Positions 27,135 to 50,137 of a stretch of DNA of 64,000 nt are shown piece after piece. Under the pieces are notes generated by a model. The model made no database searches. It worked only from the letters and a program-made list of their open reading frames with translations, and had not been told where the DNA came from. The stretch comes from an uncultured Bacilli bacterium (GTDB taxonomy: Bacteria; Bacillota_I; Bacilli_A; RF39; UBA660): positions 202-64,201 of the forward strand of contig CALVZC010000006.1 of NCBI GenBank assembly GCA_944372425.1, in the 5' to 3' direction. Numbering within the stretch: position 1 is the first letter of the stretch; every line of letters starts with the position of its first letter. The translations under genes were made by a program, and so were the position numbers.

Positions 27135-27163
27135 TTGACAAAATTATTCATACATATTAAAAT
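27135..27163 (+). promoter_or_regulatory. Sigma-A type promoter of cassette 1
   Basis: -35 TTGACA, 17-nt spacer, -10 TAAAAT, 27 nt upstream of the ATG. Confidence 0.6.
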
Positions 27164-27189: not shown

Positions 27190-27705
27190 ATGAGTAACAG
27201 AGATAAAAAAAATATTATGATTGTAGCTCTTTTAATAGCAGTTGTTTTTATGTCAGTAGGATATGCATTATTATCAACAAAATTAGACGTTCAGGGGACT
27301 TCAACAATAGTTGATCCAGTTTGGGATGTAGGAATTATATCAATAAGTGAAAATTCTACAGAAGGCTATGCTAATAGTTTAAATTCAACAGTTATTAATA
27401 AATTTTCAGCAAAATTTAATGTTGAATTGCAAATGCCAAATGATAAAGTCACATATACAATTAATGTCAAAAATGAGGGGACAATTGATGCTAAACTTAA
27501 TTCTATATCGATAATGCCAGAAGATTACAATGAGGGATTTATAAAATATGAAATAGAAGGAATAAAAGCAGGGGAAGTATTATCAGTAGGAGAAAGTAAA
27601 ACTTTCACTTTATCTGTTATGTATAACAGTGATGCAACTGGTCAGCCACAAGAAGAAGACTTAACTAAAGAAATTAGTTTAATACTTGATTATATCCAAA
27701 AATAA
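27190..27705 (+). CDS. Small secreted protein with a TasA/SipW-type signal region (cassette 1 cargo)
   Basis: 171 aa. N-terminal K-rich n-region, h-region, then GYALLSTKLDVQGTSTI. TasA-like PNDKVTYTINVKNEGTIDA strand motif. Confidence 0.75.
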   Translation: MSNRDKKNIMIVALLIAVVFMSVGYALLSTKLDVQGTSTIVDPVWDVGIISISENSTEGYANSLNSTVINKFSAKFNVELQMPNDKVTYTINVKNEGTIDAKLNSISIMPEDYNEGFIKYEIEGIKAGEVLSVGESKTFTLSVMYNSDATGQPQEEDLTKEISLILDYIQK

Positions 27706-27731
27706 GTAATTTATTATAAGTTACTTTTTTT
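27704..27731 (+). terminator. Weak hairpin plus T-run after the cassette 1 cargo gene (possible attenuator)
   Basis: aagtaa/ttactt 6-bp stem, 11-nt loop, T7. Confidence 0.3.
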
Positions 27732-27771
27732 ACTTTATTATTGTTTGTAATAAAAAAATAATGGAGGATTT

Positions 27772-28917
27772 ATGAAAAATAAAAGAATTATACTTTTATA
27801 TTTAATGTTATTTGTATATATTACAATAAACAATTTAATGATGCAGTCTAAATTTGTTTATTATAATTCAGTAATAATTTCTCCATTTTTATTGTTTGTA
27901 ATAACCATAATTGCATATTTCTTATTGCCAACAGCTCAAAAAAGAATTAAATATAAATATGAAAAAAATCAAAACGTTATTATAATAATTTTTTTATATC
28001 TAATTATTTATTTTATTTCTGGATTAATTTTCGGCTATTCATATTCTATATATAGTAAAGACTTATTGACTTTAATAAAAAATATATATAGTGTATCAAT
28101 TATTATAGTTTTAAGTGAATATATAAGAAATAAATTAGTAGTCAATAGTAGTGATAATTATATAAATAATGTACTAATTTCAATAGCTTTAATTTTGATT
28201 ACTTTTAATTTTTCTTATTTTTTTAGAAATATTTATCCTTTTTCAGTAGGATTTAAGTATATAGCATCACAAATTATTCCTAATTTGGTAATAAGCTTTA
28301 CTTTAACTTATCTTTCAAGAAAATGTGGATTGATTTCAACTTTAATTTGTAATTTATCTCTTGGTTTAATTGCAATAATTTTACCAATTTTACCTAATAT
28401 ATCTTGGATAATATTATCAATATTAAAAATAGTCTTAGCAATGTTTCTTTATTTTAACATTAATTATTTTGAATTAATGTATGATAGAAAATATCATCGA
28501 TATTTACTTAATAAGAATACGAAATCAACAACGATTTTGTTTATTATAGTAATAATATTAATTATGTTTATTTTAAAATTTTTTAAATATTATCCAATTT
28601 CTATCTTATCAGATAGTATGAAAAATACTTTTTCTCGTGGTGATATAGCAATTATCGAAAAATTAGATAGAGATTATATTGAAGAAATTCAAGTTAATGA
28701 TATAATTTATTATAAGAAAAATAATAAATTAATAATACATCGTATTGTAAATATTGAAATAATTAACAACAGAATAGTAATAACAACTAAAGGTGATAAT
28801 AATGATGATATTGATCCATGGAAAGTATATGAAGAAGAAATTGTCGGAATAGTTAAAGGGAAAATACCTTTTCTTGGATATCCAGCAGTATGGCTTAACG
28901 AAGCATTTAACGATTAG
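27772..28917 (+). CDS. Polytopic membrane domain fused to an ER/archaeal-type (SipW-like) signal peptidase I
   Basis: 381 aa. About 8 TM segments over the first ~270 aa, then the S26 motifs SDSM (Ser), IHRIV (His rather than Lys), GDNN..D. Confidence 0.8.
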   Translation: MKNKRIILLYLMLFVYITINNLMMQSKFVYYNSVIISPFLLFVITIIAYFLLPTAQKRIKYKYEKNQNVIIIIFLYLIIYFISGLIFGYSYSIYSKDLLTLIKNIYSVSIIIVLSEYIRNKLVVNSSDNYINNVLISIALILITFNFSYFFRNIYPFSVGFKYIASQIIPNLVISFTLTYLSRKCGLISTLICNLSLGLIAIILPILPNISWIILSILKIVLAMFLYFNINYFELMYDRKYHRYLLNKNTKSTTILFIIVIILIMFILKFFKYYPISILSDSMKNTFSRGDIAIIEKLDRDYIEEIQVNDIIYYKKNNKLIIHRIVNIEIINNRIVITTKGDNNDDIDPWKVYEEEIVGIVKGKIPFLGYPAVWLNEAFND

Positions 28918-28925
28918 GAGGAACT

Positions 28926-29999
28926 ATGAAAAATAAAGAGAAAGAAGTTTTAAAAAAGACAGTAATTAGAAGCTCTCTTTTATTAATATCCATTTTTTCT
29001 TTAATATTTGGAATATTAATAACTATTGAAGGAATAACAAACAACAAAGAAGAAAAAGAGGAATTAATTAGTTATGAATCAAACGGTAATATTGATTATC
29101 AGATAAGTTTAAAAGAAAATGATTTTTATAATATTGAAAATACAAATTACAAAAATATAATAGGAAAATATATTGATAATATAAATTTAAGATTTAACTA
29201 TGAATTTTCAGCATCAAATTTATTAAATTCTGAAGTTAAATATTCTTTAAAACTATATTTAGTAAGTGAATATACTGCAAATAATAAAAAAGAAGAAATA
29301 TGGAAACAAGAATATGAACTAATTCCTGAAACAGAAGAATTAAATATTAATAGTGGTATAGTTACGATATCTAAAGATATTACTTTTAATTATGACGAAT
29401 ATAATGAAATAGCTAAGAAGGTAAGATCAGAATCTGGTGTATTAACTGATTCTTACATAAAAGTAGAGTTTATTGTTAATAACAAGTTAGAATTGATAGA
29501 AAAAGATATGAATTTTAACGATAATCATACATTAGTAGCAAAAATATCACTACTAGATAATATTGTAACGTTTGAAAAGATAAATGAATACAATAATAAA
29601 GAAACATTGTATAATACTATTTCTGAAAATGCAAATTATCCATTATTAATAACAGGAATATGTTTATTACTAGTATCATTATTATTATTAATTCAGTCAT
29701 TAAAAATGTTTATAAACACTAGTGCAGAATCAAAATACATAATAGAACAAAATAAAATTTTAAAAAGATATGGTGATGTTATTGCAGAGACATCGACAAA
29801 GCCAAATTTAGAGGATACTAATATAATTGAGATAACTAATTTTATTGATATGATTAATATAGAAGATGAGCTTAGAATACCAATTTTATTTTATGAAAGC
29901 ATAAAAGGAAAAGAATCATGGTTTATTATTATTAACAATAATAAGGCATATAGATATATATTAAAAATAAAATTAAAACGAAAAAGTAATGTAAGTTAG
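28926..29999 (+). CDS. Bitopic membrane protein, cassette 1 third gene (possibly DUF5305-like)
   Basis: 357 aa. TM1 near residue 20, an ~200-aa external domain, TM2 near residue 245, and a ~95-aa cytoplasmic tail. Paralog of 50138..51244. Confidence 0.7.
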   Translation: MKNKEKEVLKKTVIRSSLLLISIFSLIFGILITIEGITNNKEEKEELISYESNGNIDYQISLKENDFYNIENTNYKNIIGKYIDNINLRFNYEFSASNLLNSEVKYSLKLYLVSEYTANNKKEEIWKQEYELIPETEELNINSGIVTISKDITFNYDEYNEIAKKVRSESGVLTDSYIKVEFIVNNKLELIEKDMNFNDNHTLVAKISLLDNIVTFEKINEYNNKETLYNTISENANYPLLITGICLLLVSLLLLIQSLKMFINTSAESKYIIEQNKILKRYGDVIAETSTKPNLEDTNIIEITNFIDMINIEDELRIPILFYESIKGKESWFIIINNNKAYRYILKIKLKRKSNVS

Positions 30000-30244
30000 A
30001 AATATAAAAAGGAAAAAAATAGCGTAAAAAAACAAAAGACAAAACAAATGCTCAAATATAAATATTTTAATTTTGTTTCATATTTTAGTAATAATGAATT
30101 ATTTATTGATAGTTTTTCATTTTATATGGTATTTTCATATTTTTCTTTTTATATATGGAAACCTTAATTTTGATCTTTGTTGTTTTATAATTAAACTAAG
30201 TACGTAAGTAAAAATATATTTAATAATAGGATATTTTGTTTATG

Positions 30245-30275
30245 CCAATTGCAAATATTTGTAATTGGATTTTTT
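30245..30275 (+). terminator. Intrinsic terminator
   Basis: ccaattgcaaa/tttgtaattgg stem (1 mismatch) plus a T-run. Confidence 0.5.
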
Positions 30276-30374
30276 ATAATAATTATTAATGTTTGCAAAA
30301 CACATTTATTTGATTTATTTCTTTTGATTTGATACAATTAACTTGTATTTATATACAATTAGAGGTGATTATTA

Positions 30375-31331
30375 TTGATAGAAGTTAGTATAATAGTTCC
30401 TGTTTATAATAAAGAAAAAGAACTGAGACGTTGTTTGGATTCATTAATAAGTCAAACTCTAAGCAATTTGGAGATTATAGTCATAGATGATAAGAGTACT
30501 GATGATAGTAAAAAAATTATAAAAGAATATCATGAAAAATATCCAAAGAAAGTAATTCCAATGTATAATGATAAAAACGAAGGAATTGGCTTTTGTAGAA
30601 ACAAAGGAATAAAAAAAGCAAAAGGAGAGTATCTTGGTTTTGTAGATGCTGATGATTATGTTGATTTTAAAATGTATGAAAAATATTTAGAATTTGCTAA
30701 AAATAATAGTTTAGAAATTGTAACAGGTTATTATATTAAATGTGGAATGATTAACGAACTATTTAAAAATGAATATTTTTCTATTGGTTCTTTAAAAGAA
30801 AACTCTGAATTATTATTAAAACTTGATTATGGACCTTGTAATAAACTTTTTAAAAAATCATTGATTATAGATAATAATATTTTATTTGAAGAAAAATTAA
30901 AATATGAAGATATGCCTTTTGTATTAAAAAGTCTTAAAAATGCTAATAAAATTGGTCATATAAATAAAGCTTATTATTATTATTATATTCATTCTAATAG
31001 TGAAACAACAACTGTAGATAAACGTGTATTTGATATATTTAAAATAATGAAAATTATAAATAAATATTATAGTGATTATGAAAATTTAGAGTGTCTAGAC
31101 GCATTAAATATTTTACAAATAACAAGATATATGGTACAACAGAGATATCAATGTAATCATAATATTGCAAATAGTTTTATTAATTATGGTTATCAATATT
31201 TGAATGCTATTAATAAAAATTGGAGGAAAAACAGATATTATCTTAAAGAAAATTTTCTTAAAAGAATAATTAAAAATAATAAATTTATTTTAAAAGTATA
31301 CTGTTTTTTTTACAAAATATTTAATAGATAG
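30375..31331 (+). CDS. Family 2 glycosyltransferase
   Basis: TTG start after GAGGTG. SIIVPVYNKEKEL...DD.S.D...DADD motifs. Confidence 0.85.
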   Translation: MIEVSIIVPVYNKEKELRRCLDSLISQTLSNLEIIVIDDKSTDDSKKIIKEYHEKYPKKVIPMYNDKNEGIGFCRNKGIKKAKGEYLGFVDADDYVDFKMYEKYLEFAKNNSLEIVTGYYIKCGMINELFKNEYFSIGSLKENSELLLKLDYGPCNKLFKKSLIIDNNILFEEKLKYEDMPFVLKSLKNANKIGHINKAYYYYYIHSNSETTTVDKRVFDIFKIMKIINKYYSDYENLECLDALNILQITRYMVQQRYQCNHNIANSFINYGYQYLNAINKNWRKNRYYLKENFLKRIIKNNKFILKVYCFFYKIFNR

Positions 31332-31369
31332 TATATTAGAAAAAAGCAAATAGAGGAAAGAGGTAAAAA

Positions 31370-32377
31370 ATGAAAAAAAGTATATTTAAAGATAAAATTT
31401 TATTAATAACAGGTGGAACGGGATCATTTGGTAATGCCGTTTTAAAACGTTTTTTGGATTCTGATTTAAAAGAAATTAGGATATTTTCAAGAGATGAAAA
31501 GAAACAAGAAGATATGCGTATTAAGTATAATAATGAAAAAATTAAATTTTATATTGGTGATGTAAGAGATTATCGAAGCGTTGAAGATGCTATGGATGGT
31601 GTTGATTATATCTTTCATGCTGCAGCTTTAAAACAAGTTCCTTCTTGTGAATTCTTCCCAATACAGGCTGTTGAAACAAATATTCTAGGAACAAATAATG
31701 TTTTAGAAGCAGCAATAAATAAAGGTGTTAAAAAGGTTATTGTATTAAGTACTGATAAGGCTGCATATCCAATTAATGCAATGGGAATGAGTAAAGCTCT
31801 TATGGAAAAGGTTGCAGTTGCTAAAGGAAGAAATTTAAAAGAAAATCAAACTGTTATTTGTAGAACTAGATATGGCAATGTTATGGCTTCACGTGGTAGT
31901 GTAATACCATTATTTTGCTCTCAAATAGAGGAAGGAAAGCCTTTGACAATTACTAATCCAGAAATGACTAGGTTTATGATGACTTTAGAAGATGCTGTTG
32001 ATTTAGTAATATATGCTTTTGAAAATGGAAAACAAGGAGATTTATTTGTTCAAAAAGCTCCTGCTGCAACGATAGATGTTCTGGCTCAGGCAGTAAAAGA
32101 ATTGAAGAAAAGTAATGCTCCTATTAAACATATCGGTTCACGTCATGGAGAAAAACTTTATGAGGTTTTAGTTACTAAAGAAGAAATGGTTAATGCTGAA
32201 GATTTGGGTGATTATTTTAGAATACCTGCTGATAATAGAAATTTAAATTATGCTAAATATGAGAATTTAGGAGATAAAGATTTAGATAAAATAGAAGAGT
32301 ATAATTCACATAATACTAAGAGACTAGATGTAGAAGGAATGAAGAAACTTTTGCTTAAACTAGATTTGTTTAAATAA
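31370..32377 (+). CDS. capE: UDP-GlcNAc 4,6-dehydratase/5-epimerase, CapE/FnlA type
   Basis: ILLITGGTGSFGNAVLKRFLDS..KEIRIFSRDEKKQ and STDKAAYPINAMGMSKA closely match my memory of S. aureus Cap5E. Confidence 0.88.
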   Translation: MKKSIFKDKILLITGGTGSFGNAVLKRFLDSDLKEIRIFSRDEKKQEDMRIKYNNEKIKFYIGDVRDYRSVEDAMDGVDYIFHAAALKQVPSCEFFPIQAVETNILGTNNVLEAAINKGVKKVIVLSTDKAAYPINAMGMSKALMEKVAVAKGRNLKENQTVICRTRYGNVMASRGSVIPLFCSQIEEGKPLTITNPEMTRFMMTLEDAVDLVIYAFENGKQGDLFVQKAPAATIDVLAQAVKELKKSNAPIKHIGSRHGEKLYEVLVTKEEMVNAEDLGDYFRIPADNRNLNYAKYENLGDKDLDKIEEYNSHNTKRLDVEGMKKLLLKLDLFK

Positions 32378-32403
32378 TATCTGTAATTATGTCAGGAGGT
32401 TTC

Positions 32404-33693
32404 ATGAAAAATATTTATAATATTTATTTAATGTTTGGTACTGTTCCAAGTTTATATGCTCAGATGAATATTTATATTGATGATAAACCAAGTGTTGTAT
32501 TTGTTAGGAGTAGTGGCTATTTTAATATTAAAAATAAACCTAGTAATTTAATCTTTTATGATGATTGTATTGGAAATGATTTAGTTTATTTATCTAAAGA
32601 TTATCAAAAAATAGTTGATAGTTTAAATAAAATAATTAGCAAAGATAAAAAAGCAAAATTTATAGTTTATATAGATGATAGTAGAGTCCAATTTTTATTA
32701 AAACCGTTTATTTTAGCAGATTGCTATGACAAAATAGAAAAAATCGTTATGATATCCGAGGGTAATATTACAGAGTATATGTATTCTGATATTGCGGAAA
32801 ATGATTTTGAATTTCAAGAAAAAAGATGGAATTTACTAATAAAAAGCATAAAAGATAATAATCAAGAATCTGAAAAAATGCTAGCAGAAATATCTAATTA
32901 TTGCTTTTATTTGTCTACAATTAACAATAATGAATTACTTTTACCATATTCAGAACTGTTAGAAAATAAAAATGTTTCTAAAGAATATAAGGAAAAAATG
33001 AATCTTAGAAATCTTGATTTACAAATGATGTTAGACAAAGTAGGAAAAAATATTTCTTTTGGAAAAGAAATAGAATCATTTAAGTTTGATGAAAAATCTA
33101 TTGTTATAATTGGTACTTATAATTTTTATGATAATAGTTTTTCAAAAGTCATTTACGAAAACTTAATTGATCAAGTTTTAGTTGATTATCCAGAATATAG
33201 CTTTTATTATAAAGCACATCCGTTGTATCCTGTCGAGAATAATGCCGAACTTTCTAGTTATTTTAAAAGTAGAAAAATTAAAGTTATACCTGAAAAAATT
33301 CCATTAGAAGTTTTATTATATAGGAATAAAAATGTTTCTATAGGAGGTTTTTGTAGTTCTATTCATTCTTTAATATCATTAAATAGAATTAAATTTATGT
33401 TTGGTGAATTTATTGGCTTTTCTAAGCTTTTGAAAAAGAATAATTTATTAAAAGTTAAAGTTTATAATGTTGAAATATCTCAAAAAATTGCTGACGCTTC
33501 TTTAAAAATTTATTATAATAGTCAGTCAAAATTTGGAATAGTTGATTATCATAGTATGCAGATTGAAAATTTAAATAATAAAGTTTATGAATTAACAGAT
33601 AAAATAAATTCCTTAGAAGAAAAATTAAATAAAATTGGTATAAAAAATAATTTAAGAAGAATAAAAAATAAATTTATAAAGAGGAGTAAATAA
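32404..33693 (+). CDS. Putative CMP-ulosonic-acid-dependent glycosyltransferase (sialyl/beta-Kdo-transferase-like) with a C-terminal coiled coil
   Basis: ATG 7 nt after AGGAGG. Has KAHPLYP (HP motif) and SEG (D/E-D/E-G-like). C-terminal heptad segment NLNNKVYELTDKINSLEEKLNKI. Lies in the same locus as a KdsB-type gene. Confidence 0.4.
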   Translation: MKNIYNIYLMFGTVPSLYAQMNIYIDDKPSVVFVRSSGYFNIKNKPSNLIFYDDCIGNDLVYLSKDYQKIVDSLNKIISKDKKAKFIVYIDDSRVQFLLKPFILADCYDKIEKIVMISEGNITEYMYSDIAENDFEFQEKRWNLLIKSIKDNNQESEKMLAEISNYCFYLSTINNNELLLPYSELLENKNVSKEYKEKMNLRNLDLQMMLDKVGKNISFGKEIESFKFDEKSIVIIGTYNFYDNSFSKVIYENLIDQVLVDYPEYSFYYKAHPLYPVENNAELSSYFKSRKIKVIPEKIPLEVLLYRNKNVSIGGFCSSIHSLISLNRIKFMFGEFIGFSKLLKKNNLLKVKVYNVEISQKIADASLKIYYNSQSKFGIVDYHSMQIENLNNKVYELTDKINSLEEKLNKIGIKNNLRRIKNKFIKRSK

Positions 33694-33694
33694 T

Positions 33695-34792
33695 ATGAAT
33701 GTTTTAGTTACTGGTTCAAAAGGGTTTATTGGTAAAAATTTATTAGTATATTTAAGAGAAAAAAAAGATGTTAGAATTTATGAATACGATATAGAAAATA
33801 ATTTTGATGATATTGTAAAAATTATTGATGATATTGATTTTATTTATCATTTTGCTGGTGTAAATAGACCAAAAGATGTTAAAGAGTTTTATGAAGGAAA
33901 TTCTGATTTAACAGTATCTATAGTTGATTTACTTAATAGTAGAAATAAAAATATTCCTTTGGTATATGCTTCTAGTATTCAAGCTGATTTAGATAACGAT
34001 TATGGTAAAAGTAAAAAGAAAGCTGAAGATTATATAAGAAATAATTATTCTAATGGTATTATTTATAGATTTCATAATGTTTTTGGAAAATGGTGCAAGC
34101 CAAATTATAATTCAGTAATAGCAACATTTTGTTATAATATTTCTCACGATTTGGAAATTAACATTACCGATAGAGAAAAAGAAATAGAATTAGTTTATAT
34201 AGATGATATATGTGAAACATTAGTTACACTATTAGATAATTGTGTCGATGTAAGCAAAGATATTAATTATGTATTTCCACGTTATAAAAAAACATTAGGT
34301 GAGTTGGCAGATACATTATATGTATTTAAAGAATGCATGAATTCAATCTATGTACCAAAAACAGGAGATCCTTTTATAAAAAAATTGTTTGCTACTTATG
34401 TTAGCTATGTTGAGCTTCATAACATGGTTACTGATATAAAGACAAATGTAGATAATCGTGGAAGTTTCAGCGAATTAGTTAGAACAAATGATAGTGGCCA
34501 ATTTTCAGTATCTTTTTCAAAACCTGGGATTGTAAGAGGAAATCATTATCACAATACAAAAATGGAAAGATTTATTGTTATAAAAGGAAAAGCTAAAATT
34601 AGTTTTAAGAAAGTTAATAGTGATGAACATATAGAATTTACTGTTAGTGAGGATAAATTGCAAGTTGTTACGATACCTGTTGGTTATACTCATAATATTG
34701 AAAATATTGGGGATAATGAAATGATTTTATTTATATGGTGTAATGAACTTTTTGATCAAAGTCATCCAGATACATATTTTATGGAGGTATAA
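33695..34792 (+). CDS. capF: CapF/FnlB-type bifunctional reductase (SDR N-domain plus cupin C-domain)
   Basis: VTGSKGFIGKNL, GKWCKPNYNSVIATFCYNI, GNHYHNTK...IPVGYTHNIEN and QSHPDTYFMEV match my memory of Cap5F. Confidence 0.88.
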   Translation: MNVLVTGSKGFIGKNLLVYLREKKDVRIYEYDIENNFDDIVKIIDDIDFIYHFAGVNRPKDVKEFYEGNSDLTVSIVDLLNSRNKNIPLVYASSIQADLDNDYGKSKKKAEDYIRNNYSNGIIYRFHNVFGKWCKPNYNSVIATFCYNISHDLEINITDREKEIELVYIDDICETLVTLLDNCVDVSKDINYVFPRYKKTLGELADTLYVFKECMNSIYVPKTGDPFIKKLFATYVSYVELHNMVTDIKTNVDNRGSFSELVRTNDSGQFSVSFSKPGIVRGNHYHNTKMERFIVIKGKAKISFKKVNSDEHIEFTVSEDKLQVVTIPVGYTHNIENIGDNEMILFIWCNELFDQSHPDTYFMEV

Positions 34793-34793
34793 C

Positions 34794-35915
34794 ATGAGTA
34801 AGTTAAAAGTCATGGTAGTTGTTGGAACAAGACCAGAAATAATTAGATTGAGTGAAACTATTAAAGCAATAGATAAATATTTTAATTTAGTTTTAGTCCA
34901 TACTGGGCAAAACTATGATTACACATTAAATGAAGTGTTTTTTGAAGAATTTGGACTAAGAAAGCCTGATTATTATTTATCAACGCCAGGAAAACATTTA
35001 GGAGAAACAGTTGGAAATATTATTTCTAAATCTTATGAAGTAATTAGTAAAGAAAAACCAGATGCTATGTTAGTTTTAGGAGATACTAACAGTTGTTTAG
35101 CTGCTTATTCCGCTAAAAGATTAAAAGTTCCTATTTTTCATATGGAAGCAGGAAATCGTTGTTTTGATTTTAATGTTCCAGAAGAGATTAATAGGAGAGT
35201 AGTAGACCATTTAAGTGATGTCAATCTTGCTTATACAGAAAATGCTAGAAGATATTTGATAAATGAAGGAATTAAAAATGATTTTCTATATGTTACTGGT
35301 TCTCCTATGAAGGAAGTAATTTTTAGCAATATGAAAAATATTGAAAAGTCTGATGTTTTAAAAAAATTAGGTTTAACTAAAAATAAATATTTTGTTGTTA
35401 GTGCTCATCGTGAAGAAAATGTTGATATTAAAGATAATTTTAATAGTTTAATGAATAGTCTTAATAAAGTTGCTGATACTTATAAGATTCCAATTATCTT
35501 TTCAACACATCCAAGAACAGCAAAAAGAATAAAAGAAAGTAATATTGTTTTAAATCCTTTAATAAAAAATATGGAACCATTAGGCTTTTTTGAATATGTA
35601 AAATTACAAATGAATGCTTTTTGTGTTTTGTCAGATAGTGGTACTATACCTGAAGAAAGTGATATTTTGAATTTTCCAGGTGTATCTTTAAGAACAAGTA
35701 CTGAAAGACCAGAAGCACTTGATGCTGGTAGTATAGTTTTAGGTGGGATAAATGAAAAAGATATTTTAAGCTCAATCGAATTAGCAATTAATTCTAGAAA
35801 AGATAGAGAAGAAAATTTAGTTAGAGATTATAAAGATACTAATGTATCATTAAAAGTAGTTAAAATAATTCAAAGTTATTATAATATTGTAAATATTAGA
35901 ACTTGGAAAAAATAA
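34794..35915 (+). CDS. capG: UDP-N-acetylglucosamine 2-epimerase (non-hydrolysing), CapG/FnlC type
   Basis: MSKLKVMVVVGTRPEIIRLS start. The track's 34743 start lies inside capF. Confidence 0.9.
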   Translation: MSKLKVMVVVGTRPEIIRLSETIKAIDKYFNLVLVHTGQNYDYTLNEVFFEEFGLRKPDYYLSTPGKHLGETVGNIISKSYEVISKEKPDAMLVLGDTNSCLAAYSAKRLKVPIFHMEAGNRCFDFNVPEEINRRVVDHLSDVNLAYTENARRYLINEGIKNDFLYVTGSPMKEVIFSNMKNIEKSDVLKKLGLTKNKYFVVSAHREENVDIKDNFNSLMNSLNKVADTYKIPIIFSTHPRTAKRIKESNIVLNPLIKNMEPLGFFEYVKLQMNAFCVLSDSGTIPEESDILNFPGVSLRTSTERPEALDAGSIVLGGINEKDILSSIELAINSRKDREENLVRDYKDTNVSLKVVKIIQSYYNIVNIRTWKK

Positions 35916-35933
35916 TTATAGTGAGGTGTTATT

Positions 35934-36668
35934 ATGAAGGTTATAGGAGTAATTCCAGCAAGATATAAATCAAGTAGATTAGAGGGTAAACCTTTAAAAG
36001 ATATTTGTGGAAAGCCAATGATTTGGTGGGTTTACCAAAAAGTTTTAAAAGTAAAGGAAATTGATGAAGTTTATGTAGCAACTGATGACGAAAGAATAAT
36101 GAACACTTGCAAAGAGTTAAATATAAATGCTATTATGACAAGAGACGATCATAAAATGATGCTTGAAAGAGTATGGGAAGTATCTGAAAAAATTCCTGGA
36201 GATATTTATGTTTCTGTAGCAGGTGATGAACCTTTGATTGAACCAGAAAACATTGCAAAAGTAATTAAACCTTTATTAAAAGATAAAAATTTACTTGTTT
36301 CAAACTTGAAGACTAAAATAACTAATCCAGTAGATTTAGTAAATTGGACAACAATGAAGGTTGTTTGTAATGAGCAAAATGATATTATCCTTGCATCACG
36401 TTCTCCAATCCCATATCCAAAGGCAACAACAGAAGTTATTTATTACAAACATATGGGAACTTATGCTTTAAGAAAAGAAGCTTTAAATTTTTTCTATAAT
36501 AAGGAAAAAGGAAATATTGAATCAATTGAAGACTTTGATTTATTAAGATTTTTAGAAAATCATATTACTGTTAGAGCTGTCGAAGTTAAATCACAAACAG
36601 TATCTGTTGATACTCCAAAAGATTTAGAAAGAGTCAGAGATATTATAAATAAAAACATGAATAGGTGA
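35934..36668 (+). CDS. kdsB: KdsB-family cytidylyltransferase (CMP-Kdo synthetase-like)
   Basis: IPARYKSSRLEGKPLKDICGKPMI, GDEPLIEP and VDTPKDLERVR align with E. coli KdsB as I recall it. The H.SGT.R segment is altered to HKMMLER. Confidence 0.65.
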   Translation: MKVIGVIPARYKSSRLEGKPLKDICGKPMIWWVYQKVLKVKEIDEVYVATDDERIMNTCKELNINAIMTRDDHKMMLERVWEVSEKIPGDIYVSVAGDEPLIEPENIAKVIKPLLKDKNLLVSNLKTKITNPVDLVNWTTMKVVCNEQNDIILASRSPIPYPKATTEVIYYKHMGTYALRKEALNFFYNKEKGNIESIEDFDLLRFLENHITVRAVEVKSQTVSVDTPKDLERVRDIINKNMNR

Positions 36669-36672
36669 TGTT

Positions 36673-39600
36673 ATGAAAGAAAAAATATTACTTTTAACTG
36701 ATATACCACCATGTACAAATTATACTGGTGGAATAATGCTTTCACAATTAGTTAGATTTTTAATAGAAGAAAAAATAGAAGTTGAATATTATTCTATTGA
36801 AGATCCGTATTTGAATGCTAAAATAGATACAACTGTAAGTGATGAGGTAAAGTTAATTAGAGTTAATAGGCCTAATGAGATTATTTCTAAAAAGAATACA
36901 TACAACAATTTTAGTAAAAAATTAAAAGCAGTTATAAAATCCGTAAAAAATTATATTAGTAGTAATAGTTTTTCTAAGATTTGGATTGTAATTCAAGGGG
37001 AGGTTATGACTGAAATAGCATACCATATTATGAATGATAAAAATTATAAATATATTGTTCAAATATGGGATCCAATAGAATGGTGGACTAAGGAGCATAA
37101 ATTCGATAAAGAAAGAGAAAAAAAAGTATTAAATAAGCATGACGAAGTGTTAAAAAATGCTGAATGTTGTATTACTACTTCAGAAGCAATGACTGAATAT
37201 TTTAATAAAAAATTAGGGATAAATTGTATAGAGGTTATGCCACCATTAAAAAAAGTTAATTTTGTATCATCTAAAACAAAAAAAGAAAAAGATAAATTTG
37301 TTATTGCTATGAGTGGACAAGTATATTCGCAAGATGAATTAGAAGCTTTATTTCTAGCTTTAGATAGTATGTCATGGAAGATTGGAGATAAGAACATCTA
37401 TTTTGAGCATTATGGTAGTTGGTATAATAGTCAAGATTTTATTAATGAAAGAGAGAAATATAAAGATAGAATAATTTGTCATGGATTTGTTCATCAGTCT
37501 ATGTTATTAAGTTATTTGAGCAATGCAGATTTGTTATATTGCCCATACTTTTTTTCTAAGGATAAAGCGTTAAAAAAAGTTTCAGAATTATCATTTCCAA
37601 GTAAATTAATTACTTATTTATCTTTAGATGTTCCAGTTTTGATGCATGGACCAAATTATGCAAGTCCAGTAAAATTTCTAGAAAAGTATAACGCTGGATA
37701 TGTAATAACTAGTGATAATCCTAATGATATAGCTAAAAAATTAACTAATATAGCTAGTTTAAATTCAAAAGAAATCTTAATTAATGCTAGAAAAGTTTTT
37801 GAATCTAATTTTACTTATGAAGTAGTAAAAAATAACTTTTTTAAAGCATTGAATATTGGCTATGATAATGAGAAAAAGTTACATATTTTAGAAGTAAATA
37901 ATGTTGATTTATCTGGTAGAAGATTTAATGGTTACGATTTGTCAGAAGAAATTAATACAACGACAAATAATCAAGCAAGACAAATAGTAGTATATAAATC
38001 TTCAGATAATGATGATGTTAAAACTTTTTATCCAAATAATAGGGGTATATCTTTAGATTGGTCTTTAATTGAGAATGAACAAAAAGAACTGTCTGTTCAT
38101 TCTCAATTGTCACTAACTTCTAATGTTCTAAAAAATAATGATTATTTTATAAATGCTGATTTAGTACATTACCATTTGATTCATAATACAAAATTATCTT
38201 TGTATCAAATGATAGAACTATGTTCTAATAAGCCATCTGTATTTACTTTTCATGATCAATGGAATTTTACCGGTAGATGTGTTAATCCACAAGAATGTGA
38301 AAAATGGAAAACAGGGTGTCACAATTGCCAATATTTAAATACATTATTTCCTTTTTTAGAAGATAATTGTCATTCGCTATGGAAATTAAAAAAATATGTA
38401 TATGAGAACTTAGATGTTGACATTGTAGTAAGCACTAAGTTTATGAAAGAAATGATTGAAACTTCACCTTTGACTAAGTGTTTTAAACATGTTCATGTTA
38501 TCCCATTTGGAATAGATTTGGAAAAATTTAAAAAAAAACTAACAAAAGAAGAAGCAAGAAAAAAATTAAAATTACCTGTTGATGATGTTGTAATTTTTTT
38601 CCGTTCACAAATGGCTGCTAAAGGAACAGAATATATAGTTGATGCGATGAAACAATTAAAAACTAATAAAAAGATAACATTATTAAGTTGTAGTGAAATT
38701 GGAAATTTAGACTCTTTAAAAGACAAATATAATGTCGTTGATTTAGGAAATATCGACAATGATAAAATGTTTCTTGCATACGATGCTTGTGATTTCTTTC
38801 TAATGCCATCACGAGGTGAAAGTTTTGGACTTATGGCAATAGAAGCAATGGCTTTTTCTAAAACTGTTGTTGTATTTAATAATACATCTTTACCAGAGGT
38901 TACTTTTGCCCCTGATTGTGGTGTTTTAGTTGAAAATAAAAACTCTAAAAAGTTAATGGAAGCTATAAAGATGTTAATTGATAATCCAGACGAATGTGAA
39001 AGACGTGGAAATTTAGGTAGAAAATTAGCAGAAGAACATTATGATATTAAGCTTTATAATGAACGCATTAAAAAAATGTATGATGAAGCCTATAAACGCC
39101 AGAAAGATAAACCTGTTAAGATACAAGATATGAAAATTGATTATAATTTAATTGATGTTAAAGTTTTAGCATATAAATTAAAAAAGATCTATAAAAATAT
39201 GTATCATATTGATATGAAAGATGATATATTTAAAAATATTAAGGAAATAAGTTTACCAAATTATAAAATAGATTATTCAAATATAAATGTTCAAAATCTT
39301 ATATATCAATTTAACTTAAGTATATATAAAAAGTATTTAGAAATCGAAGCAAGTAAAACTAATAAATATACAAAAGGCTTTTTCAACATGTTAAGGTATG
39401 ATAGAGAGCATCTTTTAGTAGCAATAGATAATAGATTGAAAAAAATTCCAGTTTTGTATCCAATTATAAAAATAATTGCTAATGTTTTGTACTTTGTTTA
39501 TAGAATATTTAGGAGATTAAAGCGTATTCTATTTAATGACTATGCAAATAAAGCTAAAAAAGATATTGAAGAATTAAATAAAGTTATAGATAATCTAAGT

Positions 39601-39687
39601 GAAGAAATAGCATCTTTAAAATATGAAAATGAATTACTTAATAATGAAATCTTGCAATTAAAGAAGAAAAGTAATAAGAAGGTGTAA
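36673..39687 (+). CDS. Large dual-domain glycosyltransferase (two GT-B/GT4-like modules) with a hydrophobic/coiled-coil C-terminal tail
   Basis: 1004 aa. GESFGLMAIEAMA EX7E-type motif in module 2. Hydrophobic segment IPVLYPIIKIIANVLYFVY and heptads near the C-terminus. Confidence 0.7.
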   Translation: MKEKILLLTDIPPCTNYTGGIMLSQLVRFLIEEKIEVEYYSIEDPYLNAKIDTTVSDEVKLIRVNRPNEIISKKNTYNNFSKKLKAVIKSVKNYISSNSFSKIWIVIQGEVMTEIAYHIMNDKNYKYIVQIWDPIEWWTKEHKFDKEREKKVLNKHDEVLKNAECCITTSEAMTEYFNKKLGINCIEVMPPLKKVNFVSSKTKKEKDKFVIAMSGQVYSQDELEALFLALDSMSWKIGDKNIYFEHYGSWYNSQDFINEREKYKDRIICHGFVHQSMLLSYLSNADLLYCPYFFSKDKALKKVSELSFPSKLITYLSLDVPVLMHGPNYASPVKFLEKYNAGYVITSDNPNDIAKKLTNIASLNSKEILINARKVFESNFTYEVVKNNFFKALNIGYDNEKKLHILEVNNVDLSGRRFNGYDLSEEINTTTNNQARQIVVYKSSDNDDVKTFYPNNRGISLDWSLIENEQKELSVHSQLSLTSNVLKNNDYFINADLVHYHLIHNTKLSLYQMIELCSNKPSVFTFHDQWNFTGRCVNPQECEKWKTGCHNCQYLNTLFPFLEDNCHSLWKLKKYVYENLDVDIVVSTKFMKEMIETSPLTKCFKHVHVIPFGIDLEKFKKKLTKEEARKKLKLPVDDVVIFFRSQMAAKGTEYIVDAMKQLKTNKKITLLSCSEIGNLDSLKDKYNVVDLGNIDNDKMFLAYDACDFFLMPSRGESFGLMAIEAMAFSKTVVVFNNTSLPEVTFAPDCGVLVENKNSKKLMEAIKMLIDNPDECERRGNLGRKLAEEHYDIKLYNERIKKMYDEAYKRQKDKPVKIQDMKIDYNLIDVKVLAYKLKKIYKNMYHIDMKDDIFKNIKEISLPNYKIDYSNINVQNLIYQFNLSIYKKYLEIEASKTNKYTKGFFNMLRYDREHLLVAIDNRLKKIPVLYPIIKIIANVLYFVYRIFRRLKRILFNDYANKAKKDIEELNKVIDNLSEEIASLKYENELLNNEILQLKKKSNKKV

Positions 39688-40692
39688 TTGATGAAAAAGC
39701 CAAAAGTATCAATAATAATACCTGTATATAATGGTTCATTATATTTAGAAGAAGCTATTGAATCAGCAATTAATCAAACTTATTGCAATATAGAGGTTAT
39801 TGTTGTTAATGATGGTAGCAATGATAATAATAAAACTAGATTAATTGCCGAAAAATATAAAAATAAAATTAAATATTTTGAGAAAGAAAATGGCGGTGTT
39901 TCAACAGCTTTAAATTTAGGTATTAAAAAGATGACAGGAAGTTATTTTTCTTGGCTAAGTCATGATGATAAATATAAGCCGGATAAAATAGAAAAGCAAA
40001 TTAAATATTTATTTGATAATAATTTATTAAATAGTAATGTTATATTATATGGTGATTTTGAGGCAATAGATAAAAAATCAAAGTATTTATGGACAGAAAG
40101 AAAAGATCATAATATTTCTATTGATAAACCTGAATATATTCTTTTAAGGGGACAAATAAATGGTATTACTTTATTGATACCAAAGAAGGCTTTTGATGAT
40201 TGTGGTTTATTTGATGAAAAACTTCGTTGCACTCAAGATTATGAGCTTTGGAATAAGATGTGTAGTAAATACAAATTTATTCATTTACCTTATATTGTTG
40301 CTGAGTCTAGATTTCATCCTAATCAAGTAACTAATAAAAGTCCGTTAGTCATTACTGAAGGAAATAAATTATGGTTAAAACTAATTAAAAATGTTCCTGA
40401 TAATAGAAAAAAAGAATTGGAAGGATCATTATATGCCTTCTATATGGAAATGCTAAATTTTATTAAAGATTCTGGATATGATGAAGTTATATCCTATTGT
40501 AGAAAACAAGTTGAAAAAATGGAAGATAATATTAAGTATAATGATGATGTAATTAATTATCAAAAAAGAAAAAAAAATGAAACTATTAGAAAAGACAATA
40601 AGAGCATAACAAAAAAAATAAAATTATCTATAAAGACTGTTGGAGTAAGAAAAACATTAAAAAAGATTATTGATAAATTTAATAAAAGTTAG
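39688..40692 (+). CDS. Family 2 glycosyltransferase
   Basis: VSIIIPVYNGSLYLEEAIES...NDGS.D motif. An ATG at 39691 is an alternative start. Confidence 0.85.
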   Translation: MMKKPKVSIIIPVYNGSLYLEEAIESAINQTYCNIEVIVVNDGSNDNNKTRLIAEKYKNKIKYFEKENGGVSTALNLGIKKMTGSYFSWLSHDDKYKPDKIEKQIKYLFDNNLLNSNVILYGDFEAIDKKSKYLWTERKDHNISIDKPEYILLRGQINGITLLIPKKAFDDCGLFDEKLRCTQDYELWNKMCSKYKFIHLPYIVAESRFHPNQVTNKSPLVITEGNKLWLKLIKNVPDNRKKELEGSLYAFYMEMLNFIKDSGYDEVISYCRKQVEKMEDNIKYNDDVINYQKRKKNETIRKDNKSITKKIKLSIKTVGVRKTLKKIIDKFNKS

Positions 40693-40750
40693 CTTCTTTT
40701 TTATTTGCTCATTTATAACTAACGTGATAAAATTTGTTTAGGGTGTTAGA

Positions 40751-43339
40751 ATGAAAAAGAAATATTTGTGGTTAAGTGTTTTTATATTGGGTGTTTTAAG
40801 TGTTATTTATATTATTAAAGGTATATTTCCTTTTGGTAATGAATCAGTTATTTGGAGTGATATGCATGAGCAAATAACAGCAATTTATTATCATTTTTAT
40901 GATGCAATAAGGGGTAATTCTTCTGTTTTGGTCGATTTTACTTCTGGTGGAGGAGTTAATTTTGTTGGTATATTAGCTTATTATATTTTAAGCCCATTTA
41001 CTTTACTTTTACTTTTATTTCCTCGTGATTTAGTGGAAAATGCTGTTTCTATTGTGGTGGCTTTAAAAATACTTGCTTCTGGAATTACTTGTTTATACTT
41101 TTTAAGTAAAACATTTAAAAAAGTTAATTCAAGTTATCAAGTATTATTATCTATTTTATATGCTTTTTCTAGTTACACTTTAGCTCTTTATATTATTACT
41201 CCATGGATGGATTTAGTTTATCTTTTTCCACTATTAATGTTCGGTTTAAGAAAGCTTCTTGATTTAGAAGATACTAAAGTATATATTATAGTTCTTAGTA
41301 TTTGTTTAATATGTTCTTTTTACGTTTCTTTTATGATTCTTTTATTTATTATTATTACGTCTTTAATATATTTATTAATTTATAATAAAAATAATAGAAA
41401 AAAAGCTATTTTTAATTTAGGTGTTTCAACAGTTATTTCTCTATTAATTTCTTCAATAGTTTTAATTCCAAGTTTTATTCAAATTTTTGATTCTCAAAGA
41501 GCAGGATTTGATTTAAATGTAATTTTAAATTCTAAATTTGGTCCACTTTCTGATAAAATTTCATTTTTATTTGGTAGTACTATATTATTTGCTTTTGCTT
41601 TATTATTAATTTTTAATTATAAAAAACATAAGAATTTCAGTTTATTTCTATTATTAAATTTATTTATATTAATGCTTCCATTAATTATAGAACCTCTTAA
41701 TAAAATGTGGCATTTTGGAAGTTATGTATATTTTTGTTATCGTTATGGGTTTATCTTAATTTTTATGTTAGTTGTAGGAGCAGCTTATTACTTAAATAAT
41801 ATCGATGTTAAAAAAGATTATTCATTTAAAATTAAAAGAATATTACCAATTTCTTTATTTGCTTTTTCTTTATTGATAATGATTTTTATATTTATTAAGT
41901 TTCGTATTAATATTTTAGAAGCAATTGACCAGTTAACTTTAACTAGAGATAAAAAAGCTTTATTTTCTCTTTTTATTGTTTCTTTATTTGTTTTTATTGT
42001 TACCTTTAGTTTAATCTTTACTAATAAAAAGAATGAAAGATTTACTATATATTTTATTTATTCTTTATCAATAGTTCAAATTTTATTTAATTGTTATTTT
42101 TATTTTAATAGAGAAGATAGCATTATTTTAGCTAAACAATACGATTGGATGTTAGAATTGAATAATGTTGATGAATTAAAGAGTAATTATTATGTTAAAG
42201 AAATTAATAGAGATTTAATTAGTAATTATGGAATGGTTTCTGGTGTTAAAACTTTTTCTAATTTTACATCTCTTACAGATAAAACTAATTTTTTTACTAT
42301 GCAGAGATTAGGATATGATTCATATTGGATGGATACAGAATCAATTGGTGGAAATCTGTTTACTGATATAGTATTAGCACAGAAGTATATAATTTCTAAA
42401 GCTAATTTTAATGATTCTTATTATTCATATGTAAATAATATTAGTGGCCTTAATTATTACAAATTTAATTCAAATATGTCTTACGGATATTTTATTAAAG
42501 AAAATAATTCATTAATTAATTCTAAAAATAGTTATGATGCTAGTAATATTATTTATAAGTCTATTACTGGTAATGATAATTTATTTGATATATATGATCT
42601 TTTTGTTAATAAGAATAATAAAATAAATTTTTATGAAAAAGGTATTTTAATTGATAAAGATATTGAGATTAAAGGAAGAAGAAGATTATATTTAGAGATA
42701 TTTACAGATTATGATAGCTATGTAAAAAACAATAATTATAATGGTTTTGATATTTATATTAATGATAAAATTTTTACAAAAAATTATCCTAATGATGATA
42801 GAAATGGTAGTATTTTTTTAGGTGAATATTCAAATAATACTGTTAATATTAAAATAGTTTCAGTAAAAAATACTAAAGTTAGAAATATTACAATCGGTAG
42901 TTTGGATTTAGATAAATTAGATAATTTTATAAACAATAATTATATTAATAATTTAAGTGTAAATTTTAATAGGAATTCTATTGATGTTAATGTTGATGGA
43001 AAAAAAGGTGATATTTTATTTCTTCCAATAACTTATTTAGATGGTTATAAATCTAATACTCACGAAATTTTTAGAGTGTTTGATAATTTCGTAGGTATAA
43101 GGCTTAAAAATGGTAGTAATTCTATTGAGATTACCTATACTCCTAAAGGAATTATTTTAGGTAGTATTCTTTCTCTTATTGGTATTTTAATGTTTATTGT
43201 TTGGGAAAAATATCTTAATAAGTTAAATTTTAATATATTATATACGTTGTTTTATTTCATTTATTTAATTATTTATATTTTTCTTGTTTTCATTTTTTAT
43301 ATTTTAATGCCTTTATTTTTTATTAAATCATTTTTTTGA
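40751..43339 (+). CDS. YfhO-family polytopic membrane protein (GT-C-like glycosyl transferase)
   Basis: 862 aa, more than 12 TM segments in the N-terminal two thirds. PFGNESVIWSDMHEQ N-terminal motif, a large extracytoplasmic C-domain and a terminal TM. Confidence 0.65.
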   Translation: MKKKYLWLSVFILGVLSVIYIIKGIFPFGNESVIWSDMHEQITAIYYHFYDAIRGNSSVLVDFTSGGGVNFVGILAYYILSPFTLLLLLFPRDLVENAVSIVVALKILASGITCLYFLSKTFKKVNSSYQVLLSILYAFSSYTLALYIITPWMDLVYLFPLLMFGLRKLLDLEDTKVYIIVLSICLICSFYVSFMILLFIIITSLIYLLIYNKNNRKKAIFNLGVSTVISLLISSIVLIPSFIQIFDSQRAGFDLNVILNSKFGPLSDKISFLFGSTILFAFALLLIFNYKKHKNFSLFLLLNLFILMLPLIIEPLNKMWHFGSYVYFCYRYGFILIFMLVVGAAYYLNNIDVKKDYSFKIKRILPISLFAFSLLIMIFIFIKFRINILEAIDQLTLTRDKKALFSLFIVSLFVFIVTFSLIFTNKKNERFTIYFIYSLSIVQILFNCYFYFNREDSIILAKQYDWMLELNNVDELKSNYYVKEINRDLISNYGMVSGVKTFSNFTSLTDKTNFFTMQRLGYDSYWMDTESIGGNLFTDIVLAQKYIISKANFNDSYYSYVNNISGLNYYKFNSNMSYGYFIKENNSLINSKNSYDASNIIYKSITGNDNLFDIYDLFVNKNNKINFYEKGILIDKDIEIKGRRRLYLEIFTDYDSYVKNNNYNGFDIYINDKIFTKNYPNDDRNGSIFLGEYSNNTVNIKIVSVKNTKVRNITIGSLDLDKLDNFINNNYINNLSVNFNRNSIDVNVDGKKGDILFLPITYLDGYKSNTHEIFRVFDNFVGIRLKNGSNSIEITYTPKGIILGSILSLIGILMFIVWEKYLNKLNFNILYTLFYFIYLIIYIFLVFIFYILMPLFFIKSFF

Positions 43340-43344
43340 TAAAA

Positions 43345-43373
43345 AAAATAATACTTTTTGGTATTATTTTTTT
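43345..43373. terminator. Bidirectional terminator between the convergent YfhO-family and FemAB-family genes
   Basis: aaaataatac/gtattatttt stem flanked by an A-run and a T-run. Confidence 0.6.
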
Positions 43374-44638: not shown

Positions 44639-44701
44639 AAATTCTCTCTCCCTTTTATAGGAAATAGTATAATATTTATATTATTAAAAGTCAAATTAAT
44701 G

Positions 44702-44723
44702 AAAAAAAGATGTTTCCATCTTT
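44702..44723 (-). terminator. Intrinsic terminator (minus strand)
   Basis: aaagatg/catcttt stem, 4-nt loop, U7 on the minus strand. Confidence 0.6.
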
Positions 44724-44967
44724 ATATCATATAGTTATTTGATAATTGGTCATTGTTTGGTACATTAGAAATAGGCATTGGTCTAGGATATGGATAGTTA
44801 TTATTTTCTAGAGTATTGACTCTTCTTTCTAATCTTCTTAATTGACGTTCTAAATTGTCTATTCTGTCGTTTACTCTTCTAAGTTCCATTGTGCATTTGC
44901 ATTGTTGGTTATTAGGATTTTGGGGTGGCATTGGTGGTATAAAACCATAAGGCATTTGATTATTCAT
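44722..44967 (-). CDS. Small P/N-rich protein with a central R/L heptad helix
   Basis: 81 aa with an AAAGGAGGAAAT RBS. PPMPPQNPNN...RRVNDRIDNLERQLRRLERRVNTLENN...YPYPRPMP. Confidence 0.6.
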   Translation of the reverse strand: MNNQMPYGFIPPMPPQNPNNQQCKCTMELRRVNDRIDNLERQLRRLERRVNTLENNNYPYPRPMPISNVPNNDQLSNNYMI

Positions 44968-45028
44968 ATTTCCTCCTTTATTCGTTTTATTATATGCAAT
45001 ATTGCAATAGTGTGTTATAATTAAGTAG

Positions 45029-45673: not shown

Positions 45674-45746
45674 TTTAAAAAAAAAGTGTTAAAATTATAT
45701 TAATATATTAATTTATTTGATATAATTAAAATAGAGTAGGTGTAAT

Positions 45747-46409: not shown

Positions 46410-46426
46410 TAAGTGAGGTGCTTTTA

Positions 46427-47374: not shown

Positions 47375-47378
47375 TAAT

Positions 47379-47681
47379 GTGGAAGTTTTAAATGAACTAT
47401 TTCCTGTAGTATTGTATTTTTTAGGAGTTATTTTACTAATATTATTAATAATTTTAGTTGTTAAATTGATAAATACTGTTGAAAAAACTAATGTTCTTTT
47501 AGATGATTTGACTGAAAAATCAAAATCGTTAAATAGTTTGTTTGATGCGATTGAATCAGTTAGTGATACAATAACCTCGGTTAATATGAAAATTATCAGT
47601 ACATTTACAAGTATTATAAGTAAGTTGTTTAGAAAAAAGAAAAATAAAAAAATTAAAAAGGAGAATGATGAATATGAGTAA
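47379..47681 (+). CDS. DUF948-like small membrane protein
   Basis: GTG start 9 nt after AAGGAG. One N-terminal TM then a helical region. Lies adjacent to a YtxH-like gene, as in Bacillus ytxG-ytxH. Confidence 0.55.
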   Translation: MEVLNELFPVVLYFLGVILLILLIILVVKLINTVEKTNVLLDDLTEKSKSLNSLFDAIESVSDTITSVNMKIISTFTSIISKLFRKKKNKKIKKENDEYE

Positions 47682-48922: not shown

Positions 48923-48935
48923 ATAATTGTAATAA

Positions 48936-48966: not shown

Positions 48967-48996
48967 AAATATATAAGGCATTTATTGGGGTAAAAT

Positions 48997-50130: not shown

Positions 50131-50137
50131 AAATAGA

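Follow-up and report, generated by a model that had tools for sequence, protein, structure and literature searches.

A conserved, predicted eight-helix membrane domain fused to signal peptidase I in two TasA-like fibre cassettes of an uncultured Bacilli bacterium

Two fusion genes and their cassettes

The DNA considered here, a stretch of 64,000 nucleotides (nt) from an uncultured Bacilli bacterium (GenBank assembly GCA_944372425.1, contig CALVZC010000006.1, positions 202 to 64,201) that is referred to in its whole length as the window, carries two open reading frames (ORFs) in which a polytopic N-terminal domain of ~245 amino acids (aa), the N-domain, is joined to a signal peptidase I of the archaeal/endoplasmic reticulum (ER) type (TIGR02228). 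Copy 1 occupies 27772..28917 (+; 381 aa), its ATG at 27772 being preceded by a GGAGG Shine-Dalgarno sequence at 5-nt spacing, and copy 2 occupies 48997..50130 (+; 377 aa). In copy 1, whose protein supplies the residue numbering used throughout, the N-terminal eight-helix membrane domain (residues 1-248; 27772..28515, +) is the main feature and is followed by the peptidase module (28516..28917, +), which consists of an anchor helix and the signal peptidase I domain with S282, H323, D342 and D348. The corresponding parts of copy 2 lie at 48997..49725 (+; residues 1-243) and 49726..50130 (+).

The initial annotation of this locus, made from the letters alone, had described an unassigned domain of ~270 aa and ~8 transmembrane (TM) segments at 27772-28581, upstream of the SipW-type peptidase domain in both copies and with two membrane motifs in common. 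The number of helices holds, and both copies do carry a long polytopic N-terminal part, a translationally fused module for which AlphaFold2 predicts ~8 TM helices; its end has to be moved to about residue 248 (28515), since the helix at 251-267 is the peptidase's own anchor and the earlier range (residues 1-270) thus overshoots the extra domain by ~20 residues. The first ~250 aa indeed match no Pfam or NCBIfam family. The two proteins align end to end (30% identity, E-value (E) 4e-45), with 21.8% identity in the N-domain and 39.8% in the peptidase half, and this pairwise alignment bears out the common motifs by setting SEYIRNKL against TELFRYQL and ILPILPNIS against IVPILPNIN. In copy 1 the first motif, E116-Y-I-R119 (ExxR), falls in the cytoplasmic half of TM4 (28117..28128, +) and the second, P205-I-L-P208-N209, in the loop between TM7 and TM8 with its short beta-strand 206-208 (28384..28398, +), while their counterparts in copy 2 are ELFR (49333..49344, +) and PILPN (49600..49614, +).

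The C-terminal half is an archaeal/ER-type signal peptidase I (TIGR02228, MEROPS S26B) by profile, catalytic residues and fold. Its ~125 aa match TIGR02228 with 76.4 bits in copy 1 and 93.6 bits in copy 2 (curated cut-off 51.85), the match in copy 1 starting at residue 254 and so including the anchor helix. The nucleophile S282 (SDSM), His323-Arg324, in which the general base is His and not Lys, and G341-D342-N-N...D348 are present in 168/168 full-length representatives, that is, 168 of the 199 sequences examined, from clusters at 50% identity or less, to which the conservation counts below also refer. The best Foldseek match of the full-length model is human SEC11A (7p2p_A, E 8.4e-5), followed by SipA and SpsB at 2e-3 to 8e-3. 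The earlier description of this half as SipW-type is right as to type; the two copies are not SipW orthologues, as they score 57.7 and 59.1 bits with the SipW equivalog model NF046067, far below its cut-off of 190. The stand-alone archaeal/ER-type peptidases (SipW, SEC11, TafD) resemble the fused one in the Ser/His/Asp catalytic domain, in being dedicated to the processing of TasA-like subunits with an aromatic P2' residue and in operon linkage with cargo. Bacillus subtilis SipW has ~190 aa and one or two TM helices, from which the fusion differs by its N-terminal bundle. TafD differs as well, with four TM helices, an extra C-terminal domain and no N-terminal bundle (PMC11821415).

Each fusion gene is the middle member of one of two co-directional three-gene cassettes, in which a TasA-like fibre subunit, the fusion and a DUF5305 protein follow each other with intergenic gaps of 7-75 nt. 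In cassette 1 the subunit (cargo 1; 27190..27705, +) is a secreted protein of 171 aa with a basic n-region, a hydrophobic stretch of ~18 aa and the sequence GYA/LLSTKLDVQGT (the slash marking the predicted cut), a TasA-like cleavage and donor-strand region, and the DUF5305 protein, a proposed accessory subunit of the peptidase, lies at 28926..29999 (+; PF17231, 53.4 bits). In cassette 2 they are matched by a subunit of 196 aa with GFA/AFSTTLSIDGT (cargo 2; 48332..48922, +) and a DUF5305 protein at 50138..51244 (+; PF17231, 57 bits). The subunits have in common a basic n-region, a hydrophobic stretch of 18-20 residues and the motif [G/A]-[Y/F]-[A/G] / x-[F/L]-x-x-x-L-x-[I/V]-x-G-T, which resembles the cleavage site of TasA, with its aromatic P2' residue, and the donor strand (PMC10269814). 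Cargo 1 has weak Ig-like matches below cut-off (DUF11, CARDB) and cargo 2 a weak match to Camelysin (PF12389, E 0.0047), also below cut-off; against solved structures the subunits gave no sequence match, and likeness to AbpX is not demonstrable by sequence. Downstream of cassette 2, a protein of 460 aa (51604..52986, +) without a Pfam or NCBIfam match begins with MIKPKIMFLITITILGLSIGYG/AFNAELSISGEATV and shows the signal and cleavage motif of cargo 1 and cargo 2 as GYG/AFNAELSISGEA; judging from this motif it is probably a further substrate, for example a large or tip subunit, and may be one of the cassette 2 peptidase.

Between the cassettes the subunits are 27%, the fusions 30% and the DUF5305 proteins 28% identical, and since all three components are paralogous the cassette must have been duplicated as a unit long ago. 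This parallel divergence of 27-30% fits a peptidase matched in each case to its own subunit and DUF5305 partner, and the presence of the cassette twice within ~24 kb (27190..51244) of this 1.3-Mb gut-type Bacilli genome suggests that it is important for the surface biology of the organism. The same order of subunit(s), fusion and DUF5305 recurs in three unrelated metagenomic loci (L017, L018 and L019), and DUF5305 is present in every locus that can be read past the fusion gene. In a metagenome-assembled genome (MAG) of the Desulfurococcales three consecutive subunit genes (L003, 3328..5350; 197, 239 and 198 aa) precede the fusion gene, and their products, TasA-like too, carry ...A(L/M)W(W/Y)... 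motifs after the hydrophobic stretch; this contig ends ~1 kb past the fusion gene. In L017 and L019, larger upstream subunits (300 and 266 aa) have CBM_2 matches, weak in L017, which hint that some fibre subunits may bind carbohydrate.

Spread, conservation and predicted fold of the N-domain

The N-domain is a large family without a name, found only ahead of archaeal/ER-type signal peptidase domains. With residues 1-270 as query, 49 homologous clusters were retrieved, nearly all of 376-395 aa, and a profile restricted to the N-domain (residues 1-250, built from 16 sequences) matched 1,567 representative proteins at E<=1e-3, of which 314 reach E<=1e-30. Among its 150 best matches most have 360-400 aa; some matches of 170-310 aa may be fragments or true stand-alone forms. 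A plasmid search with copy 2 matched the peptidase half only and found no N-domain. The family reaches the archaea: in the Desulfurococcales a homologue of 394 aa can be aligned with copy 2 from end to end (26% identity, E 9e-32) and carries AEMFR and FPVLPNTNW, and with the archaeal N-domain as seed a protein search gave no more than four clusters, all of the Desulfurococcales. Among the matches, a protein of 812 aa (P0164) comprises the N-domain and the beginning of the peptidase domain, to which a C-terminal part of ~500 aa is added that resembles a metallophosphatase or 5'-nucleotidase; probably this is either a chimera of the gene call or a true, if aberrant, fusion.

It had been recognised from the outset that the extra domain might be an artefact, two separate genes merged by a frameshift or an assembly join. 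The probability of this is negligible, because the same unbroken architecture is found twice in the window, in an archaeon and in 168/199 sequences examined, and because an orthologue with 82% identity lies in the closed 1.31-Mb chromosome of an uncultured Bacilli MAG. The 49 clusters and 1,567 profile-matched representatives, mostly of fusion length, speak against it as well, as does the full-length archaeal homologue, and a separately translated N-domain is thereby excluded for this locus. The ratio of nonsynonymous to synonymous substitution rates (dN/dS) relative to the close orthologue indicates purifying selection on both the N-domain (0.28) and the peptidase half (0.20).

The conservation of motifs within the N-domain is far beyond chance. 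G84 is found in 167/168 representatives, G88 in 157/168, N104 in 166/168, E116 in 166/168, R119 in 167/168, Y180 in 157/168, and P205 and P208 in 165/168 each, so that G84, N104, E116, R119, P205 and P208 are each kept at >=98%, the level of the catalytic Ser282 and His323. The helix-packing motif GxxxG (G84-x-x-x-G88) is nearly invariant. A second tier of polar intramembrane positions on TM5 to TM7 comprises D/E/N144 (134/168), N175 (122/168), Y193 (139/168) and R/K194 (105/168), and copy 1 in the window deviates from it with T144 and C193-N194. The initial annotation had argued that motifs conserved between such diverged paralogues speak for a function. Both motifs are signatures of the family from Bacilli to a crenarchaeon; their loss among orthologues, which would have told against it, is confined to one to three of the 168.

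AlphaFold2 modelled the full-length protein with a predicted local distance difference test score (pLDDT) of 85.6 and a predicted template-modelling score (pTM) of 0.73, and the N-domain alone with 89.1 and 0.85, respectively. The predicted N-domain has eight helices (4-24, 29-51, 62-87, 98-124, 130-154, which is kinked, 157-184, 187-203 and 212-237), after which comes the peptidase anchor helix at 251-267. The only beta elements of the N-domain model are the strands 89-91 and 206-208, which must pair, as there are no others in the model of the domain alone. Counted with the AlphaFold2 helix boundaries, the loops hold ~17 positive charges on the cytoplasmic side and 4 outside, which places the N-terminus, the 52-61 loop, the 184-187 loop and the 238-250 linker in the cytoplasm, a topology that is needed in any case because the peptidase domain must be outside. 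A topology prediction had been proposed in order to place the two motifs relative to the membrane faces, and in the model ExxR is predicted to lie in the inner-leaflet half of TM4, at a depth near N175 and Y193/R194, while the PIxP(N/D) loop, the GxxxG-Y...S-P-Y loop and N104 would be directed toward the outer face, next to the working site of the peptidase.

Of the remote-homology searches recommended earlier, Foldseek gave a single credible structural match. Against the PDB it aligned the N-domain with four chains of 4cad, the Rce1 CAAX protease of Methanococcus, at a probability of 0.98-1.0 over 264-272 columns (TM-score 0.42-0.47, root mean square deviation ~7 A, E 0.009-0.06), and this entry was matched by both the N-domain-alone model (264-269 columns, E 0.03-0.06) and the full-length model, the next PDB matches of the N-domain having a probability of <=0.12. 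The predicted bundle and that of Rce1 are alike in having eight helices, both termini inside and a conserved Glu...Arg pair in TM4, and the pair is suggestive since CPBP enzymes, which carry HxxxN in TM7, carry EExxxR in TM4 (PMC11980579). The N-domain differs from Rce1 and other CPBP proteins in lacking EExxxR, FxxxH, HxxxN, any conserved His and a Pfam match. Instead of motif 1 the family has x-E116-x-x-R119, with a spacing one residue shorter and Glu at position 115 in 16/168 representatives, and motifs 2 (FxxxH, TM5) and 3 (HxxxN/D, TM7) are missing, as no His of the N-domain is conserved at >=85% among the 168. A single better match than Rce1 was obtained in BFVD, namely A0A8S5VSK5, an unnamed viral protein of 280 aa (probability 1.0, TM-score 0.58/0.53), which may be either a CPBP/Abi protein from a phage or related to the N-domain.

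Sequence comparison with the CPBP family gave an unstable picture. PF02517 had no match in 16 family members at E<=10, and searches of hidden Markov models (HMMs) against sequences were empty in both directions between the N-domain and CPBP. As a positive control, the profile of a CPBP alignment built from 12 annotated plasmid genes found 4cad at 3.8e-7, whereas the N-domain profile found no PDB sequence at E<=10. A first hhalign run of the N-domain against CPBP gave P 0.0021 in local and 2.7e-5 in global mode, with E116/R119 on the CPBP motif and reversed or shuffled controls scoring 15.6 or below, and one collinear alignment placed FxxxH on F140xxx[D/E/N]144 and HxxxN on R194xxxE198. This signal was lost with a larger CPBP alignment (P 0.057) and with an archaeal-only one (P 0.29); in a jackknife P ranged from 0.0018 to 0.22 with differing registers, and a second hhalign implementation gave a probability of 7.5% in yet another register. 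Overall P varied from 2.7e-5 to 0.48 with the mode and the CPBP alignment, the registers shifting, and because of this instability the map from FxxxH to FxxxD/E and from HxxxN to RxxxE is a lead and not a result. Membership of CPBP (PF02517) is thus not established by sequence, given the absent His motifs and the unstable profile-profile signal. With moderate confidence the modelled bundle may be called Rce1-like in architecture, and, judged from its residues, the N-domain is certainly without the canonical CPBP catalytic set. Two other assignments were dropped: an SLATT_6 match to the first two helices of copy 2 (20 bits, cut-off 100) is put down to TM composition, and for exosortases and archaeosortases the N-domain has no conserved Cys or His and no NCBIfam match at E<=0.1.

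Possible roles of the N-domain in fibre-subunit processing

The fusion architecture has already been noted once in the literature. A 2026 preprint reports ten TM helices rather than two for the signal peptidase I encoded in bacterial and archaeal AbpX loci, and suggests DUF5305 to be an accessory subunit that recalls those of the eukaryotic complex (bioRxiv 10.64898/2026.01.04.697558). The proteins described there and here are alike in being of the TIGR02228 type, in having many extra TM helices, in occurring in bacteria and archaea and in standing beside donor-strand subunits and DUF5305; the preprint devotes one sentence to the extra helices and gives no fold, motif or function for them. The count here is 8+1 helices, or ten if the kinked TM5 is split, against the ten of the preprint, and its Pyrodictium abyssi protein is likened to the present ones by description only. 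In the haloarchaeal tafi system, deletion of the dedicated signal peptidase TafD leaves the TasA-like TafA unprocessed, and genes for DUF5305 (TafG) have been duplicated together with peptidase genes (PMC11821415). Papers that connect SipW-type peptidases to CPBP or CAAX proteases were looked for in the literature, and none was found.

The N-domain may be the substrate-handling half of a dedicated signal peptidase, one that holds the signal anchor of the precursor, and it is this reading that we tentatively favour. In it, the peptidase active site (Ser282/His323/Asp), situated on the outer membrane face, would remove the long signal anchor from the TasA-like fibre subunits encoded just upstream, and the freed N-terminus would become the donor strand for fibre assembly. 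The eight-helix bundle, with both ends cytoplasmic, would hold the signal anchor against itself or inside, with the invariant Glu116/Arg119 in a polar pocket of the inner leaflet beside the charged n-region of the signal, and the P-I-x-P loop and the Y-x-x-S-P-Y loop would form a two-stranded sheet on the outer face that adjoins the peptidase and brings the cleavage region to Ser282 in the active site. DUF5305 would be a third partner, and the N-domain could be likened to the accessory membrane subunits of the eukaryotic signal peptidase complex, here built into the enzyme itself. The comparison with SPC12/SPC25 (PDB 7p2p) is one of functional analogy only, that of non-catalytic helices shaping the encounter of hydrolase and substrate, and no sequence or fold relation to SPC12/25 was detected. 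A further analogy may be drawn with CPBP-fold proteins that scaffold another hydrolase as pseudo-proteases, such as SpdC with SagB and APH-1 in gamma-secretase.

Substrate handling fits the obligate fusion to a peptidase that is always intact, the two conserved clusters at the two membrane faces, and the fact that between the paralogous cassettes the N-domain has diverged faster than the peptidase half (21.8% versus 39.8% identity), as expected of a part that tracks its own substrate or partner. Several considerations weigh against it. The contact between N-domain and substrate is a proposed one, and Rce1 is matched only moderately well (TM-score 0.42-0.47, E 0.03). When a buried Glu and Arg are as invariant as the catalytic Ser and His, this points more often to chemistry than to a passive scaffold, and known CPBP pseudo-proteases such as SpdC have lost the Glu of motif 1. 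In addition, weaker constraint may be all that lies behind the greater divergence of the N-domain.

The initial annotation had named three possible roles, a cargo docking or polymerisation platform, a second catalytic activity and a channel, and an Rce1-like bundle would fit either docking or catalysis, while nothing supports a channel. As a second enzyme, the N-domain would be an intramembrane hydrolase or transferase, Rce1-like but histidine-less, in which Glu116 works with polar partners on TM5-TM7 and which acts on the same precursor, either cutting up the leftover signal anchor as a built-in signal-peptide peptidase or modifying the subunit. We consider this unlikely, even though E116 and R119 are as invariant as the catalytic residues of the peptidase, ExxR sits in TM4, the helix that bears EExxxR in CPBP enzymes (PMC11980579), and the only fold match is a glutamic intramembrane protease; moreover, CPBP-fold proteins that have acquired sorting or acyl-transfer roles are known (myxosortase, LnsB). 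The collinear hhalign alignment on F140xxx[D/E/N]144 and R194xxxE198 points the same way, but it was not reproducible in the jackknife, with the larger CPBP alignment or in the other hhalign run, all CPBP histidines are missing, the spacing is that of ExxR rather than EExxxR, and PF02517 is not matched. The candidate polar partners are only 57-83% conserved and copy 1 has T144 and C193-N194, and the pocket would be on the side of the cytoplasmic leaflet, facing away from the new N-terminus. That the fusion is a processing machine with two active sites, and with it the first histidine-less Rce1-like intramembrane enzyme, destroying the released anchor or modifying the subunit, is in our view distinctly unlikely; if true, it would couple export, cleavage and clean-up or modification of fibre subunits in one polypeptide, from Crenarchaeota to gut Bacilli.

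It appears quite improbable that the N-domain is a platform without contact to the signal peptide, which would fix the peptidase in place and in orientation, bind the two helices of DUF5305 or form oligomers, and so mark the site at which subunits of the fibre are set free and polymerise. Such a platform would account for the co-occurrence of DUF5305 in every locus readable past the fusion gene, for the near-invariant G84-x-x-x-G88 packing motif and for the previous proposals of DUF5305 as a peptidase partner (bioRxiv 10.64898/2026.01.04.697558; PMC11821415); on the other hand, peptidases that are likewise linked to DUF5305, such as TafD with its four TM helices, work without an N-domain (PMC11821415), and packing alone fails to explain why a buried Glu/Arg pair and an Asn should be invariant. 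The remaining role, that of a channel or translocon for cargo, is suggested by the polytopic nature of the domain and its polar residues within the membrane only, and it is highly improbable, as the N-domain has no fold similarity to any channel or transporter (such Foldseek matches all have a probability of <=0.12), the cargo bears an ordinary N-terminal signal of the kind handled by Sec, and a monomer of eight helices that buries just one Glu/Arg pair does not look like a channel.

TasA-superfamily fibres form biofilm matrices in both bacteria and archaea, and their subunits become competent for assembly only after a dedicated peptidase has exposed the donor strand. A large branch of these peptidases, with at least 1,567 sequence clusters in bacteria and archaea, has an obligatory eight-helix domain. 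Its role, once worked out, would reveal by what means long signal anchors of a special class are recognised by a prokaryotic signal peptidase, and the fusion may be a simple analogue, in one polypeptide, of the eukaryotic signal peptidase complex with its several subunits. Concrete experiments can start from the lead to an Rce1-like fold and from the map of invariant residues.

Sites and genes around the cassettes

Ahead of cassette 1 lies a promoter-like site, TTGACA-17-TAAAAT (27135..27163, +), which agrees with the consensus at 11 of 12 positions; this is a consensus match only, and such sites are no commoner than in shuffled sequence. On its 3' side a terminator-like hairpin with a T-run (30245..30268, +) is the only one in the region, where 0.2 would be expected from shuffles. 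Directly after cassette 1 there is a sugar-nucleotide and glycosylation cluster (30375..43339, +), with genes for a GT2 glycosyltransferase, a Polysacc_synt_2 dehydratase, an epimerase with Polysacc_synt_C, a UDP-GlcNAc 2-epimerase, a CTP_transf_3 cytidylyltransferase, a GT4/GT1 protein of 1004 aa, another GT2 protein and a YfhO protein of 862 aa, and it is followed on the opposite strand by a FemAB gene (43364..44638, -). In its gene content this cluster resembles a CMP-sugar pathway of the nonulosonic-acid type.

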